NCBI GenBank assembly: GCA_963755025.1
Contig: CAVWIH010000011.1
Location: 1-64,000, forward strand
Direction: 5' to 3'
From: an uncultured Actinomycetes bacterium
GTDB taxonomy: Bacteria > Actinomycetota > Thermoleophilia > UBA2241
Length of the DNA stretch: 64,000 nt
The number at the start of each line of letters is the position of its first letter. The stretch's first letter is position 1. Below the pieces are notes generated by a model, which did no database searches, was not told the origin of the DNA, and was given only the letters and a program-made list of their open reading frames with translations. A program made the position numbers and the translations under genes. Shown piece by piece: positions 12,471-19,618 of the stretch.

Positions 12471-13415
12471 ATGGCCGACAGAGTCAGGCAGATCCTTTCG
12501 TGGTACCGCTCCGAGAGCCCCGGCGTGCAGGCGAACCTCTACCGCTTTCTCATGAGTGGTCGGCTGGCCGGCACCGGCAAGCTCGTCATGCTGCCGGTCG
12601 ACCAGGGCTTCGAGCACGGCCCCGCGCGCAGCTTCTCGCCCAACCCCGCCGGCTTCGACCCGCGCTACCACTTTCAGCTCGCCATCGACGCGGGCTGCAA
12701 CGCCTACGCCGCGCCCCTCGGCTTTATCGAGGCCGGCGCCGCCGACTACGCGGGCCAGATCCCGCTCATCCTGAAGGCCAACAACAACGACCTGCTCTAC
12801 GGCAACCCCGAGGCGCCGCTGCCGGCGGTCACCGCGGGCGTCGACGACGCCCTGCGCCTGGGTGCGAGCGCCATCGGCTTCACGATCTATCCCGGCTCGG
12901 CCGAGCGCACCCAGATGTACGAGGAGCTGCGCGAGCTGGCCGCCGAGGCCAAGTCGGTCGGCCTGGCCGTTGTGGTTTGGTCGTACCCGCGCGGCGGCGA
13001 GCTCACCAAAGAGGCCGAGACCGCGGTCGACGTGTCCGCCTACGCCGCCCAGATCGCGGCGCAGCTCGGCGCGCACATCATCAAGGTCAAGCCGCCGACC
13101 AACGCCCCGTGGGACAAGAAATCGGCCGAGGCCTACGCCGCGGCCGGTATCAAGGTCGAGACGCTGACCGACCGCGTGAAGGCCGTCGTGCAGGGCGCCT
13201 TCGCCGGCCGTCGCATCGTCATCTTCTCGGGCGGCGAGGCCAAGGGCATCGACGCCGTGCTCGAAGAGAACCGCCAGTGCGCGGCCGGCGGCTCGTTCGG
13301 CACCATCATGGGGCGCAACTCGTTCCAGCGCCCCCACGACGAGGCCGTCAAGCTGCTGCAGGACGTCATGGAGATCCACGCCGCGGCGCCGGCGCCCGGC
13401 TCGGTGCACGACTGA
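12471..13415 (+). CDS. fbaB: Class I fructose-bisphosphate aldolase (DhnA/FbaB type)
   Basis: LPVDQGFEHGP, WSYPRG, AHIIKVK, IFSGG, GRNSFQR. Confidence 0.92.
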   Translation: MADRVRQILSWYRSESPGVQANLYRFLMSGRLAGTGKLVMLPVDQGFEHGPARSFSPNPAGFDPRYHFQLAIDAGCNAYAAPLGFIEAGAADYAGQIPLILKANNNDLLYGNPEAPLPAVTAGVDDALRLGASAIGFTIYPGSAERTQMYEELRELAAEAKSVGLAVVVWSYPRGGELTKEAETAVDVSAYAAQIAAQLGAHIIKVKPPTNAPWDKKSAEAYAAAGIKVETLTDRVKAVVQGAFAGRRIVIFSGGEAKGIDAVLEENRQCAAGGSFGTIMGRNSFQRPHDEAVKLLQDVMEIHAAAPAPGSVHD

Positions 13416-13470
13416 AATCCCGGCGCGGGGGCGACTTCCCCACCGCGCGCCGAGCGCCGGCAACCGGCCC

Positions 13471-14874
13471 CTACGGCCGCCGCCTTGGCGTGCCCGCCAG
13501 GCCCGCCCGCAGCCGCTCGACCGCGTTCAACCGCAGGCCCAGCAGGTCGGCGATGTGCCACTTGGCCTCGAGCGGGCTGGGGTCGGCGAAGTAGCTCGAC
13601 TCGGTCTCGAAGACGCGCCCCAGGCGCAGCTCGCCGCGCAGCTCGTGCATGACCGTGTTGTCGGACAGGTCGCGTACCGTGACGCCGAGCCTGTCGGCCA
13701 CGAACCGCTTGGCCTGAGCGATCCTCATGCCCTTCGCCATCTGCATCCGCGCCACCAGGTCTCCGGCGGCGCGCAGTCCGTTCATGCCGGAGGCGCACGA
13801 GTGGGCCACGTCCATGCCGAACGTGTCGCCCGAGCCGACCTATAACCCGTCGAGGCGCAGCACGTCGACACAGGCCCGCGAGGCCCGCGACACGGCGTCG
13901 ACGGGGGCGAAGGCGTGCATGGGCAGGCCGCCCACGCCCATGCCGACGTTCATGTGCACGGGAATGCGGGCGTCGGCCATGCAGGGCTTGACGTACGTCA
14001 GGGCGCGCGCCGAGTTCCAGGCGGCCGACTCGACGGTCGAGGTGTTCACCGCCGGACCGAACACCGTGGCGCCGGCCTGCTGCACGACGGCCAGCTGACC
14101 AGCGGGCTTGAGCCCGGCGAGGCGGGTGCCGCGGTACTCGAGGCGTCCGTGGGTGCCGAGCACCATCTCAGACGCCATGCCGACCATGATGCCCATGTCG
14201 GGGTGGCCGGCGCGCAGCGTCTCGACGGCCCGCAGAGTGGCCAGAAAGTCGGCGTCGCCGGCGGCGCCGGCGGTATCGAAGTTGATGCCGTCGGCGCCGG
14301 CCTCGTAGAGCGCCTCGGCCACGTAGACCATGTCGTCGACGGCCAGCTCGACCGCCTCTTCCTGCGCCTCGCGAGCCTCGTCGATCTTCATGTCGGGCAG
14401 CAACTCGGACCAGTTGCCGCAGGGCCCGTCGGGCGTCGAGTAGCGGCCCAGGTCGGGCTGCGCGCCGTAGTGCACGGGCACCGTCAGGCGCTCCTGCGCC
14501 TCTTTCATGGCCTGCTGCTCGAACGGCACGACCGTCTTCACGGCCTTGTACGAGTAGTCGATGTGAAAGAGCTCGACCGTGTCGTGGGCGAGCACCTGCT
14601 CGCAGGCATAGAGGGCGTCGATGCGGCTGCCGAGCTGCGGCGTGCCGCTGCCGTCTTTGGAGAGCACGACCTCGTCGCCTATGTCGACGCCGGTGAAGCG
14701 CGCCGACGAGGCGAAGATGTCGAGGAGATGGTCGAGCTCGTCGTCGGGGAGCGGCGGTACCTTGCCCCTGGTCGCCGCGGCCAGCGTGCCAGCCGCCAGG
14801 TCGGCCTTGATCTGGCTGCGCGTCGTTTCGAACAGCGAGCCGTCGCCCCTGCGGGCCAGCACATGCGGTTCCAC
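13471..14874 (-). CDS. mtbB: Dimethylamine:corrinoid methyltransferase MtbB family, pyrrolysine-encoding (in-frame TAG 13840-13842); paralog 1, 467 aa with readthrough
   Basis: HIDYSYK, FDTAGAAGDADF, VGMGVGG, DGL-TAG-VGSGD...AAGDLVARMQ; the ORFs 13840-14979 and 13471-13815 are in one frame. Confidence 0.92.
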
Positions 14875-14977
14875 CAGCGTCCCCCTCGGCCGTCCGGTAG
14901 CCGCGATGCTATCGCAGGGCCGCCGCGAGCGGCAAGGACGACGGGACCGACCGGCGGCCCCGGTCGTCCACCGCCGC

Positions 14978-15020
14978 AAGAAAGGAAGAAGCGGGGGCGC
15001 GGCCCTGCCGCGCCCCCGCT
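14978..15020 (-). terminator. Intrinsic terminator after mtbB paralog 2
   Basis: 14-bp stem agcgggggcgcggc/gccgcgcccccgct followed on the minus strand by TCTTCCTTTCTT. Confidence 0.75.
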
Positions 15021-15058
15021 CCTGGCCTGCTCGGCGCGCCGTTACCGACGCCGCAGAA

Positions 15059-16444
15059 CTACAGCCCGGCGCGGGCCTTGAAGCGCTCGACGCAGTTGAT
15101 GGGAATGTCGAGCGTGCGGGCGATGTTGAACTTGGCCTCGATCATGCCGGCGTCGCCGGGGCGCACCGCCGAGGTGTGAGGCAGCAGGCCCAACCCCTTC
15201 TCGCTGCGGATGGTCTCCATGGCGATCGGGTCGGACAGGTCGCGGACTCCGCAGCCGAGCTTGTCGGCGACGTAGGCCTTGGCCTCTTTCAAACGCATTC
15301 TCCGGGTCATTTGCATGCGTGCCACGAGATCTCCCGCGGTGCGCATTCCGCCCATGCCCGAAGCCTGCACGTGGGCAGACTCCATGCCTTGGGAATCGCC
15401 CGTGCCTACCTAGTACCCGTCGATCTTGAGGATCTCGACGAAGGCCTTGGAGGCTCGTGACGTGGCGTCGGCCGGCGGGTAGACGCAGGTCGGCACGCCG
15501 CCGACGCCCATGCCTACGTTGACGTGCACCGGGATCTCGGCGATCTCGGCCGCCGGCTTGATGAACGTCATGGCGCGGGCGATGTTCCAGGCCGTCGACT
15601 TGCCGGTGTTGATGTTGATCGCCGGGCCGTAGATAGAGGCGCCGGCGGCCTGCACCATGCGGATCTGGTCCTTGGGCCACATGCCGGCCAGGCGCTCGCC
15701 GTCGAAGGTGAGCTGGCCGTGCATACCGAGCACGAACTCGCTCGCCATGCCGATCTCGATGCCGAGCCAGGGGTACTTCTCGCGCAGCATGCGGCAGGCG
15801 GTGAGGCCGGCGAGAAAGTCGGCGTCGCCGGCCGCGCCGGTGGTGTCCATGTCGATGCCGTCGGCGCCGGCCTCGATCATGTGGTCGGCCACGTAGTTGA
15901 TGTCTTCGATCAGCATGTCGCAGGCTTCGAGCTGGGCTGCGCGGGCTTCGTCGACCTTCATGAGCGGCAGCAGCTCGGACCAGTTGGGAATGGGCCCGTC
16001 GGGCTTGGAGTAGCGCCCGAGGTCGGGCATCGCGCCGTACTGCACGGGGTTCGTGCAGAGCATCTGGGCGATCTTCATGGTCTGGCCTTCGTGGGCCACG
16101 TTGGTCTTGATGGCCTTGTACGAGTAGTCGATCTGCCAGAGCTCGACCATGTCGATGCCGACGACCTGCTCGTAGGTCTGCAGGTCCTGCACCCGGTTGC
16201 CGATGTGCTTGGTCCCGGTGCCGTCGTTGCTCATGATGACTTCTTCGCCGATGTCGACCGCGGTGAAGCGCGCCGACGAGGCGTAGATGTCGAGCAGATG
16301 GGCCTGCTCGTCGGCCGTGAGCGGCTCGGTCTTGGCCCGCTTGGCCGCCTGCTGTGTGCCGTCTTCGATGTCGGCCTTGATCTCGGAGCGGGTCATCTCG
16401 ACGAGCGAGCCGTCACCCATGCGGGTAGCGATCTTGGGTTCCAA
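15059..16444 (-). CDS. mtbB: MtbB-family methyltransferase, pyrrolysine-encoding (in-frame TAG 15410-15412); paralog 2
   Basis: TRMGDG, DYSYK, YGAMPDLG, DTTGAAGDADF, DGY-TAG-VGTGD...RTAGDLVARMQ, AKFNI; GGAGGTG 6 nt before TTG. Confidence 0.92.
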
Positions 16445-16640
16445 ACGCATCACCTCCACTGCTTCGCGCGAGTGCCCTGCCGCAACGAGCGCGGCGGGGC
16501 CGATGGGGCCGGGGGTCGGCGTGTGGTGCGTGAGAACGGCGACGACCCCGGACCGTGCGCTCATGGTATATCGGCCCTCGCGCCACCCGCCACCCGGGGC
16601 GGCCGGCGGGCCGGTCGCGCGGGTCGCGCGGCGGCGGCGG

Positions 16641-16703
16641 GGTGGCGCACGATGCGGCGCCGGTGGCGAACGATGCGGCGCGGGTGGCGGGCGATGCGGC
16701 GCC
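16641..16703. repeat. 21-bp tandem repeat x3 (ggtggcgnncgatgcggcgcs)
   Basis: Seen directly between ldh and mtbB2. Confidence 0.75.
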
Positions 16704-16730
16704 GATGCGCGGTGGCGCCGGCGGCGCGAC

Positions 16731-17759
16731 TTACGCGGCGCGGCGGCCGCCGATGTGCCCGCCCGGGCCCAGGAGCACTTCGTTGACGAGCGGGCGGCCG
16801 GCTTCGAACTCGCTCACGTTCAGCAGCGTCGTCGCCGCGATCTCGCGCAGGGCCTCGCTCGTGAAGTAGCCCTGGTGGGCGGTGACGATCACGTTGGGAA
16901 AGGTGAGCAGGCGGCTGAAGACGTCGTCCTGGATGATCTGGCCCGACAGGTCGTGCGAGAACAGCTCGGTCTCTTCTTCGTAAACGTCGAGGCCGAGCGA
17001 GCCTATGCGCCCCGCCTTGAGGCCGGCGACCACCGCCGCCGAGTCGACCAGGCCGCCGCGGCTCGTGTTGATCAGCATCACGCCGCGGCGCATCTGCGAG
17101 ATCGCCCGGCGGTCGATCAGGTGCGTCGTCTCGGGCAGCAGCGGACAGTGCAGCGTGATGATGTCCGACTCGGCGAACAGCTCCGCCAGCTCCACGTAGC
17201 GCGCGCCCAGCTCGAGCAGGCGCTCGTTGGGGAACGGGTCCGAGGCCAGCAGCCGGCAGCCGAACCCGGCGAGGATGGCGGCGGTGGTCGCCCCGATGAT
17301 GCCCGTGCCGATCACCCCGACGGTGCGGCCGTACAGGTCGAAGCCGAGCAGGCCGTCGAGCGAGAAGTTGCCGTCGCGCACGCGCTGCCAGGCGCGATGG
17401 ATCTTGCGGTTGAGGGTGAGGATCAGGGCGACGGCGTGCTCCGCGACGGCGTGCGGTGAATAGGCCGGCACGCGCACGACGTGCACGCCCAGCGCCCCCG
17501 CCGCCGCGAGGTCGACGTTGTTGAAGCCCGCCGAGCGCAGCGCCACGAGCGCCGTGCCGCCGGCGGCCAGGCTGGCCAGGGTGGTGCGGTCGAGCTCGTC
17601 GTTGGCGAACACCGAGACGGCCGCGAAGCCGGCGGCCAAGCCCGCCGTCTCGGCGGTGAGGCGCGGTTCGAAGAACACGAGCTCGTGACCGACCCCTTCG
17701 TTGGCGGCGGTCAGGAACTCGCGGTCGTAGCGGCGGGTCGAAAAGACGGCGATGCGCGT
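16731..17759 (-). CDS. ldhA: D-lactate dehydrogenase / D-2-hydroxyacid dehydrogenase
   Basis: [47 protein letters not shown]; the canonical Met position is ACG, so the start is uncertain. Confidence 0.88.
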
Positions 17760-17942
17760 GGCGGCCTCGCGTTGGTCAGGGTCGCGGACTGCCGTGACAG
17801 TTCCCGCTCTCGAGCAGGGCAAACGCCGCAGGACGCGCCGGTCGTACGTGTCGCGCCGCACAGGGACGGGCGCGGCGGCCGGGAACGGCGGCGGCCGCCC
17901 GGCCCGCGCCCGAAGGCGCGGGCCCGCGGCCGCCGCTTCGCC

Positions 17943-19355
17943 TCAGATCTCGACCGGCCGGCGGCGGCCCGCCTTGGCGCGAAAGCGCTCGACGCTGTTG
18001 ATGGGCAGGTCGAGCAGCGCAGCGATGTTGAACTTGGCCTCGATGCCGATGGGGTCGTGGATGTCGGTGACCTCGCCCGACTCGAGGATGCCGCCCAGGC
18101 CCAGCTCCTTGCGCACGTCGAACATGACGGTCGGGTCGGAGAGGTCGAGCGTCGAGACGCCCAGCTTGCCGGCCACGTACTCTTTGGCCTCTGTGAGGCG
18201 CATCGCTCGGGTGATCTGCATCCGGGCCACCAGATCTCCGGCAGTCCTGATCCCGCCCATCCCCGAAGCGACGCCGTGACTCACGGCCTGGCCGTAGACG
18301 TCGCCCGCGCCTACCTATAAGCCGTCGAGCCGCAGAATGTCGACCGCGGCGCGCGAGGCCCGGCAGGTGGCGTCGCCGGCCGGCACGACGTGCATGGGCA
18401 CGCCGCCCACGCCCATGCCGCCGTTCAGGTGCACCGGTACGGTGGCCGCCTCGCAGCAGGGTTTGGCGATGGTGAGCGTGCGCGCCACGTTCCAGGCGAT
18501 CGACTTGCCGGTGTTGACGTTGATCGCCGGCCCGAAGATGGTCACGCCGGCCTTGGCGGCGAGGCGTCATCTGCTCGAGCGGCCACAGGCCGGCCAGGCG
18601 CACGCCGTCGTACTCGAGCTCGCCGTGCATGCCGAGCACGAACTCGCCGGCCATGCCGATCTGGATGCCGAGGTCGGGGTGCCGGGCGCGTATGCGCTCG
18701 ACCGCCTTGAGGGCGGCCAGGAAGTCGGCGTCGCCGGCCGCGCCGGCGGTGTCTAAGTCGATGAACTCGATGCCGGCCTCGACCATCTCGTCGGCCACGT
18801 AGACGATATCGTCGGCGGCGAGCTCGACGGCCTCTTCCTGGGCCGCCCGCGCCTCGGCGATCCTGCCGAGCGGCAGGAGCTGCGACCAGTTGGCGACCGG
18901 GGCCGTCGGGCACCGTGTAGAGGCCGAGGTCGGGCATGGCGCCGTAGCCGAGCGGCGCGGTGGTCACGAACTGCGCCTGGCGCATGACGACCTGCTCGAA
19001 GGCCATGACGGCCTTGGCCGGCTTGTAGGAGTAGTCGTGGTGGTAGAGCTCGAGCGAGTCGGCGCAGAGGTACTGCTCGTAGTACTGCAGATCGTTGACG
19101 CGGGTGCCCAGGTCCTGGCTGCCGCAGCCGTCGTAGGAGAGCACGACCTCGTCGCCGATGTCGACGCCGGTGAAGCGGCTGTTCGAGCAGAAGATCTCGG
19201 CGAGGTGGTCGAGCTCGGCGCTCGGTGAGCTCCGGCGACTTTCGGACGCGCTTGGCGCCCGCCTGCGTGCCCTCCTCGAGATCGGCGCGGATCTGCGCCG
19301 GCGTCATCTCGACGAGCGCGCCGTCGCCCATGCGGGTACGGATCCTGGCTTCCAA
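17943..19355 (-). CDS. mtbB: MtbB-family methyltransferase, pyrrolysine-encoding (TAG 18315-18317); paralog 3, with about 3 frameshifts (~19230, ~18900, ~18565)
   Basis: Segments in successive frames reconstruct full MtbB: TRMGDG / DYSYK, YGAMPDLG / DTAGAAGDADF / DGL-TAG-VGAGD...RTAGDLVARMQ. Confidence 0.85.
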
Positions 19356-19474
19356 GCGCACACCTCCGCGGACAGGGGACTTGCGGCCGACCCTACCCCG
19401 CCGCGAGGCGCCTGTCATCAGCCGCCGCTGCCGGGCCGCGAAGATTGCCGAAGGATCCGCGCGGCGCCGGCCTC

Positions 19475-19618
19475 TCGGACCTGCCGGTCGCCCGGACCTG
19501 CGTATCGCTCAGACCTGCCGGTCGCTCGGACCCGCCGGTCGCTCGGGCCTGCCGGTCGCTCAGACCTGCGTATCGCTCAGGCCTGCGGATCGCTCGGACC
19601 CGCGTGCCGCTCAGACCT
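19475..19618. repeat. 17-bp tandem repeat x8.5 (tcrgrccygc(cgg/gta)tcgc), upstream of mtbB3
   Basis: Units start at 19475, 19492, 19509, 19526, 19543, 19560, 19577, 19594, with a partial unit at 19611; no spacers. Confidence 0.9.

Follow-up and report, generated by a model that had tools for sequence, protein, structure and literature searches.

A hairpin under synonymous-site selection downstream of the pyrrolysine codon in bacterial mtbB genes corresponds to the 3' stem-loop of PYLIS_2

We analyzed a 64,000-nucleotide (nt) stretch of DNA from an uncultured Actinomycetes bacterium of the Thermoleophilia (GTDB lineage UBA2241; assembly GCA_963755025.1, contig CAVWIH010000011.1, positions 1 to 64,000; hereafter the window), whose minus strand carries three genes of the dimethylamine methyltransferase family (mtbB; Pfam PF09505). 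Each of them contains one in-frame TAG at the family's pyrrolysine (Pyl) position, and in all three a 32-nt segment that folds into a hairpin begins 63 nt after this codon (Table 1). Comparison with homologous genes strongly supports the conclusion that the hairpin is real and is under RNA-level selection on synonymous sites in the bacterial mtbB lineage, regardless of genome G+C content. As judged from Rfam matches, the element is the bacterial form of the 3' stem-loop of PYLIS_2, the catalogued "pyrrolysine insertion sequence mtbB"; the window thus adds new PYLIS_2 members and no new kind of element. A role of the hairpin in cis, favouring the decoding of the upstream UAG as pyrrolysine, is plausible but unproven, and we rate it just short of an even chance.

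The comparison included 166 mtbB genes, of which 159 form a bacterial clade termed "Gly-Leu-Pyl" ("GLO") and seven are of other types. The first set comprised 87 distinct genes, namely the seven copies of the host genome and the best 80 loci of 469 confirmed relatives from GTDB genomes. These relatives were confirmed among 619 pattern matches, and 91 motif hits were reduced to 87 by removing overlapping-locus duplicates and one hit without an upstream TAG. The second set contained the best 80 of more than 520 metagenome relatives; the motif was found in 79 of them (locus L138 was dropped), 72 of which are GLO genes. Both sets were retrieved with a degenerate back-translation of [AG]GDLVAR, which fixes the peptide and leaves the codon choice free.

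The hairpin is encoded by the codons of M/I/L-R-A/T-A-G-D-L-V-A-R-M. At the codon level this peptide forms a palindrome, and it belongs to the most conserved stretches of MtbB. The glycine codon of its loop is GGA in 159 of 159 GLO genes, whose G+C content at third codon positions (GC3) ranges from 0.36 to 0.97 (87/87 in the first set, GC3 0.40-0.97; 72/72 in the second). In a whole-gene synonymous scan, which covered every well-conserved degenerate column in 40 sequences sharing less than 80% amino-acid identity, this codon was the top outlier (GGA in 40/40 vs 5.4 expected, z 16.9). The leucine codon just before the TAG came second (TTG in 31, TTA in 7 and CTG in 1 of 39 sequences, z 14.2), and further outliers were a stem leucine (CTG, z 7.7) and the loop aspartate (GAT, z 6.5). 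Among the 72 GLO genes of the second set, GAT and CTG were each used 64 times at these sites. For comparison, GGA makes up 3.1% of the glycine codons of the host genome and GAT 5.5% of its aspartate codons; codon and stop usage was taken from a crude set of 1003 long, high-GC3 open reading frames (ORFs).

Four pairs of the stem join one wobble position to another. They are paired in 40, 37, 30 and 32 of the 40 first-set genes, where about 17.5 (standard deviation about 3) would be expected from each gene's own codon usage, and in 70, 63, 44 and 53 of the 72 second-set GLO genes, vs 28-33 expected; stem wobble pairing is thus about twice what codon usage predicts. Over 79 distinct sequences, 89.2% of the cells of the helix (alignment columns 67-98) are paired. 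Changes on both sides were counted in 69 cells, compared with a shuffled mean of 23.4, and the helix covariation score was 0.197, compared with 0.074 after shuffling; none of 500 shuffles reached either value, and registers slid by 1-3 columns scored at most 0.074. Five of the 14 helix pairs are invariant because the protein fixes them. In phylogenetically independent pairs, taken from a tree computed after removal of the hairpin columns, a G/C swap on the 5' side was accompanied by the compensating swap in, on average, 3.7 of 4, 4.4 of 7 and 3.6 of 5 cases and never by the opposite one. Each of these three tests alone is underpowered (median p 0.125); pooled, they suggest compensation. In the 110 nt after the UAG, RNAalifold predicted this hairpin as the sole structure, and it found no conserved structure between the UAG and the hairpin in the bacterial mtbB set. 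The codon anomaly moreover reverses its direction at low GC3, as a structure would require: in the 42 second-set genes with GC3 below 0.65, GCC was used 34 times vs 16.9 expected and CTG 41 times vs 13.0 expected. The initial annotation had proposed selection for an RNA structure over and above that for the protein, and this proposal is upheld by the invariant rare GGA, by compensatory wobbles that exceed codon-aware, shuffled and slid controls, and by the independent tree pairs. Covariation beyond codon-aware and shuffled controls, which it had named as the signal to look for in homologue alignments, was found.

The constrained form is distributed, according to record labels, over Actinomycetota, Chloroflexota/Dehalococcoidia, Bacillota, Thermodesulfobacteriota/"delta", Proteobacteria and Spirochaetes. 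The seven second-set genes of other types do not conserve GGA (their glycine codon is GGC, GGT, GGG or GGA, and their leucine codon CTT or CTC), and their wobble pairing lies at expectation. Five of them have isoleucine and two have valine before Pyl; the five Ile-Pyl genes may be called "Methanosarcina-like", a label for which the only basis is that their peptide nearly matches the translated Rfam consensus.

Within the window, refolding reproduced exactly the hairpin coordinates, the 63-nt spacing and the three folds given by the initial annotation. Its description of the wobble bases, with GCC/CTG in copies 1 and 3 and GCG/CTC in copy 2, was verified in the codons, and the locally uncommon GGA is present in 3/3 window copies and in all seven mtbB paralogs of the host, which have the hairpin with differing stem sequences. 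Only its count of three genes needs amending, in that all three copies carry the hairpin and the third gene is not intact but split between frames. The fold of copy 1 (-23.2 kcal/mol, z -4.65) and that of copy 2 (-16.6 kcal/mol, z -3.50) were matched in stability by none of 200 dinucleotide shuffles each, and the fold of copy 3 (-12.3 kcal/mol, z -1.35) by 21 of 200. A fairer null is the same peptide recoded synonymously under the codon usage of the paralogs. Such recodings have mean energies of -12 to -15 kcal/mol, and 3%, 15% and 45% of them equal or exceed the stability of copies 1, 2 and 3, respectively. Because synonymous recodings fold about equally well, the evidence from the window alone is weak and does not prove selection, and single-sequence folding energy was rejected as evidence.

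These recodings, together with the five pairs fixed by the protein, fit the explanation that there is no RNA-level selection and that the hairpin simply arises as a by-product when a codon-palindromic R-A-A-G-D-L-V-A-R is read in GC-rich codons. Two exceptions among the GLO genes, L122 and L156, which keep GGA and have unpaired wobbles, weigh against the reading that we propose below. A by-product is nevertheless extremely improbable in our judgement, as it accounts neither for a codon of such low host frequency in every GLO gene, nor for the doubled wobble pairing, nor for compensated swaps on independent branches. The same nucleotides are moreover kept over the entire GC3 range, whereas the seven other-type genes, which share the peptide, show no such conservation, and a retrieval bias towards these codons is unlikely, as the second-set search also brought in GGC, GGT and GGG genes. 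Since the hairpins are no more stable than many recodings, selection would appear to keep a particular shape rather than maximal stability.

Constraint is also seen at unpaired loop nucleotides, namely the A of GGA and the preference for GAT over GAC, and of the glycine codons only GGA creates the sequence GGAG. Both features would suit selection on a primary-sequence motif, either a Shine-Dalgarno-like GGAG within GGA-GAY that acts as a signal for internal pausing or initiation (there is a GTG 5 nt downstream) or an element of the opposite strand. We consider this explanation improbable. It leaves the compensatory changes at the stem wobbles unexplained, and two invariant stem pairs are G-U, which would become A-C mismatches on the antisense strand, so that the structure exists on the sense strand only. 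In addition, the corresponding hairpin of mttB genes described below lacks GGAG, and its last loop base varies freely.

The other leading outlier, the leucine codon before the pyrrolysine TAG, is TTG or TTA in 38 of the 39 non-redundant mtbB genes of the genome set and in 70 of the 72 metagenome GLO genes (loci L012-L171). Pyl-type mttB genes with leucine before the TAG likewise use TTG or TTA, as do six of seven Pyl-type mtmB genes, and three non-Pyl MtmB-family paralogs with a leucine aligned to this position have CTC. In the host, TTG provides 2.8% and TTA 0.3% of the leucine codons (3.1% together). Before the true stop TAG at the end of copy 2, the codon is CTG.

The MtbB family is usually considered Pyl-dependent. 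Of 150 listed protein representatives, eight span the Pyl position, and among these P0009 was the only intact full-length homologue without Pyl: a 463-residue MtbB-like protein with 37% identity, in which tryptophan occupies the pyrrolysine column, the active-site motifs are altered and GDLVAR is retained. No P0009-like DNA was recovered in the metagenome scan, where identity did not exceed 49% and a TAG was present in each of the 79 usable loci.

The identity of the element follows from its Rfam matches. All three window copies score well above the gathering score of 36 bits for PYLIS_2 (RF02509; Table 1), and the four other mtbB paralogs of the host reach 61.1-73.7 bits. In the three copies, position 1 of the model aligns to the in-frame TAG of the PF09505 gene, and no non-canonical pair is flagged in the 3' helix (model positions 73-92). 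Gene family, start of the model at the UAG and register of the 3' hairpin are therefore all shared. The initial annotation's "candidate PYLIS-like element" was thus correctly recognized but is not new, being the 3' hairpin of a curated family. The 5' hairpin of the model (positions 7-38) is not supported: it has many non-canonical pairs in all three copies and 62.0% of its cells paired across the bacterial set, and it is not predicted by RNAalifold. The bacterial form also differs from the model in other respects. The model consensus translates to a Methanosarcina-like peptide, whereas the bacterial 3' hairpin is longer, with up to 14 bp, pairs the Ala/Leu wobble bases that are unpaired in the model, and has an invariant GGA where the consensus is only weakly conserved (lower case). 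PYLIS_2 originates from the work of Have et al. (2013), in the accessible part of which a "relatively canonical" structure is said to be drawable for the 100 nt after the mtbB UAG (PMC3639795).

Two further catalogued elements invite comparison. The PYLIS of mtmB (RF01982, PYLIS_1) is likewise a coding-region structure 3' of a Pyl UAG that was proposed to favour insertion, but it is reported, in the portion of the literature at hand, to lie directly after the UAG, unlike the hairpin described here; no RF01982 match was obtained in positions 13000-19600 even at E values up to 10. The bacterial selenocysteine insertion sequence (SECIS) is a coding-region stem-loop 3' of a recoded stop codon as well, in which loop nucleotides matter, and it is bound by a dedicated factor, SelB. 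According to the consulted part of Zhang and Gladyshev (2007), it lies directly downstream of the UGA (PMC1976440), in contrast to the 63-nt gap found in all three copies.

A second gene family contains a comparable hairpin. The mttB genes (PF06253) belong to a different Pfam family from mtbB, and the host MttB-family genes include five with a TAG and about 17 without. All five Pyl-type genes share a hairpin that spans codons +22 to +27 downstream of the TAG and uses TTG and GCA, both rare in the host (GCA 2.2% of alanine codons), and nothing comparable was found at the aligned place in the 17 non-Pyl MttB paralogs of the same genome. The wider mttB sample was taken from 48 first-set genomes, in all of which PYLIS_3 (RF02510) matched, in 45 of them above the cut-off. 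Forty additional regions were fetched, five of which were dropped for lack of a TAG motif, and the resulting 70 genes (loci L184-L253) included 61 that were long enough and 37 that were non-redundant. In a scan of 217 columns, the strongest outliers were codon +24 (GCA in 33/36 vs 4.5 expected, z 14.9) and codon +23 (TTG in 30/36 vs 4.5 expected, z 13.2). The 6-bp stem is complete in 27 of 37 genes, compared with 0.95 expected (maximum 6 in 2000 resamplings), compensated variants occur, and the loop is AGGN with a free last base. Counted from the U of the UAG, the loop centre is about 76 nt away in mttB and about 82 nt away in mtbB. The host Pyl-type mttB genes match PYLIS_3 with 70.9-77.3 bits and carry a hairpin analogous to that of mtbB, but the PYLIS_3 consensus structure lacks this hairpin, G-UUGGC[AGGN]GCCAA-C at codons +22 to +27. 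For mttB, the available text of Have et al. reports no common structure (PMC3639795).

A third case may be mtmB, of which only seven bacterial Pyl-type genes were found in the 48 genomes. Some 117 nt downstream of the TAG, five of the seven have a candidate hairpin, GAC-NYA-GGN-GCG-TTG with an AGGN loop (loci L254-L259), and in these few genes the first A of the loop is kept although the encoded residue varies (V, A, I, L). Non-Pyl MtmB-family paralogs lack the hairpin, and their synonymous scan reached a maximum z of 4.8, with nine non-redundant sequences and hence lower power than the scans of 37-40 sequences. A fixed distance from the UAG across the three families was considered and rejected, as the mtmB hairpin lies at about +117 and not at +66 to +82.

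Based on these features, we propose that the mtbB hairpin, which has a 7-bp core (GCY-GG / CUG-GUN-GC) usually extended to 11-14 bp, an A-G-A-Y tetraloop and a start about 63-70 nt 3' of the UAG, would act together with the constrained UUR codon (R, purine) before the UAG, in cis, on the translation of its own mRNA. The internal UAG would thereby be decoded by Pyl-tRNA instead of causing termination, in a genome where about one-third of the genes end in UAG (TGA 563, TAG 343 and TAA 97 in the crude ORF set). As the hairpin is beyond the reach of the ribosome that decodes the UAG, a kinetic mode, for example a slowed leading ribosome or polymerase, would be likelier than the recruitment of a factor as by SECIS. 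Circumstantial support is provided by the matching hairpin of mttB, the confinement to a single clade, the constraint on the codon before the TAG and the frequent use of TAG as a stop, and the first three of these give the finding more weight than a plain database match.

Several points weigh against a role in decoding. The 63-nt gap places the hairpin far outside the mRNA held by a ribosome with the UAG in its A site, and to our knowledge no Pyl-specific elongation factor exists (no search aimed at a hairpin-binding factor was made here). The distance is not fixed across families, the mtmB candidate lying elsewhere in five of seven genes, and in copy 2 of the window a tyrosine, not a leucine, precedes the pyrrolysine UAG. 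Selection that keeps a shape would also be compatible with other roles, and full-text literature searches yielded no experiments on the function of PYLIS_2. The original PYLIS left Pyl incorporation in Escherichia coli unchanged and does not occur in all Pyl genes, as stated in the accessible portion of a 2024 preprint (10.1101/2024.09.30.615893), and a 2025 paper, as far as its available text goes, knows of no mechanism that would target Pyl insertion (PMC12626013).

For these reasons, a selected mRNA structure whose role is unrelated to the UAG has to be taken seriously, although we would still place it below even odds. It could serve in mRNA processing or stability, as a pause for the folding of the active-site segment, or as a transcriptional pause. 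All the selection evidence fits such a structure equally well. Direct action on decoding is disfavoured by the gap and by the absence of a known Pyl-specific factor, the spacing of the mtmB candidate differs, and few peptide stretches of the enzyme are as conserved as the one that the hairpin encodes. However, in both mtbB and mttB the most strongly constrained synonymous sites of the entire gene are located 22-32 codons downstream of the UAG, the mttB hairpin is missing from non-Pyl MttB paralogs of the same genome, and the other top outlier of mtbB is the very codon that adjoins the UAG. Such coincidences would not be expected if the role of the hairpin were unrelated to the UAG. A more general extension of the decoding role is speculative and in our view rather unlikely. 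It would hold that bacterial Pyl users possess a gene-internal recoding signal absent from methanogen-type genes, made up of UUR-UAG-G and, 65-120 nt downstream, a short hairpin of rare codons capped by an A-G-R-N tetraloop. Such a signal would have arisen independently in mtbB, mttB and perhaps mtmB and would direct Pyl to chosen UAGs in cells where a third of the genes still end in UAG.

The genomic setting is as follows. The window has a G+C content of about 71% and belongs to a host genome of 3.37 Mb in 39 contigs, with a completeness estimate of 84%. Four more mtbB copies with one TAG apiece are located elsewhere in this genome, which brings the total to seven. A profile search detected a PylS catalytic domain (277.8 bits); ARAGORN found no tRNA right beside pylS, and a whole-genome tRNA scan located a tRNA-Pyl with the anticodon CUA 4.4 kb away. 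Copies 1 and 2 of the window end in TAG, so that a single mRNA has one UAG to read through and one to obey; readthrough of these terminal codons would add about 35 or more residues. In copy 3, the Pfam match is divided among different reading frames (profile segments 41-160, 156-270 and 269-462), and the gene would seem to be either a pseudogene or the result of an assembly error. This frame-broken copy nonetheless retains TTA-TAG, the GGA codon and the hairpin. Metatranscriptome contigs with at least 95% identity, from four assembled runs, cover copy 2; being assembled, they reveal no ends, strand or level, and the missing coverage of copy 1 is uninformative. One of them (15228-15519) spans both the UAG and the hairpin of copy 2, with DNA carry-over possible, and among the contig differences listed none falls inside 15315-15346 (17 further differences lie beyond the listing). 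PF09505 was found in just two of 401 genomes sampled across the phylum, one of which is the host, so that this sample contributed no additional sequences, and the closest mtbB relatives carry the labels uncultured Actinomycetota and Thermoleophilia. Searches with PF06253 revealed about 25 MttB-family loci in the host, five of them of the TAG type, in addition to the seven mtbB genes. For an actinobacterial genome of 3.4 Mb, this is a large repertoire of methyltransferases for methylated or quaternary amines.

Table 1. Coordinates of mtbB genes, pyrrolysine and stop codons, hairpins and Rfam matches in the window, and of Pyl-type mttB genes on other host contigs.
Feature	Position	Strand	Details
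mtbB copy 1 (dimethylamine methyltransferase, Pyl type)	13471..14979	-	PF09505, E 2.8e-161; start codon uncertain
mtbB copy 2	15059..16564	-	PF09505, E 2e-164; start codon uncertain
mtbB copy 3, at least 3 frame changes	17943..19418	-	PF09505, E 1.6e-76
Pyrrolysine TAG, copy 1	13840-13842	-	In-frame; TTA-TAG at 13840..13845 (rare Leu codon before TAG)
Pyrrolysine TAG, copy 2	15410-15412	-	In-frame; TAC-TAG at 15410..15415, -1 residue Tyr
Pyrrolysine TAG, copy 3	18315-18317	-	In-frame; TTA-TAG at 18315..18320
Terminal stop TAG, copy 1	13471-13473	-	Preceded by CCG
Terminal stop TAG, copy 2	15059-15061	-	Preceded by CTG (CTG-TAG 15059-15064)
Hairpin copy 1, 32 nt	13745..13776	-	Core stem 13752-13769, AGAC loop 13759-13762; 11 contiguous pairs, two of them G-U
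Hairpin copy 2, 32 nt	15315..15346	-	Core stem 15322-15339, AGAU loop 15329-15332; GCG/CTC compensated wobble pair
Hairpin copy 3, 32 nt	18220..18251	-	Core stem 18227-18244; within frameshifted mtbB
Rfam RF02509 PYLIS_2 match, copy 1	13743..13842	-	61.1 bits; 100 nt from TAG
Rfam RF02509 PYLIS_2 match, copy 2	15313..15412	-	57.8 bits
Rfam RF02509 PYLIS_2 match, copy 3	18218..18317	-	57.5 bits
Pyl-type mttB genes outside the window (host contigs)	C14:383544-384962, C16:23860-25281, C14:392337-393638, C34:134667-136073, C21:4604-5737		

The finding bears on the open question of how a cell distinguishes a pyrrolysine UAG from a stop UAG. Full-text literature searches returned no description of the bacterial synonymous constraint, of the mttB hairpin or of the UUR-UAG context. 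Zhang and Gladyshev (2007), in the part of their article that is accessible, reasoned that bacteria should need a cis element, saw "no obvious common structure" and urged more searches (PMC1976440). If the hairpin is indeed a recoding signal, it would be a bacterial "PYLIS" that was missed by that search of bacterial Pyl genes, as far as the same text describes it (PMC1976440). The long-doubted bacterial insertion signal becomes testable at defined sites, namely the stem wobble pairs, the loop A of GGA and the UUR codon before the UAG. Should these sites not matter, a different explanation would still be required for the most strongly constrained synonymous sites of two gene families; should they matter, they would bear on the design of efficient amber suppression with pyrrolysyl-tRNA synthetase (PylRS) and tRNA-Pyl.

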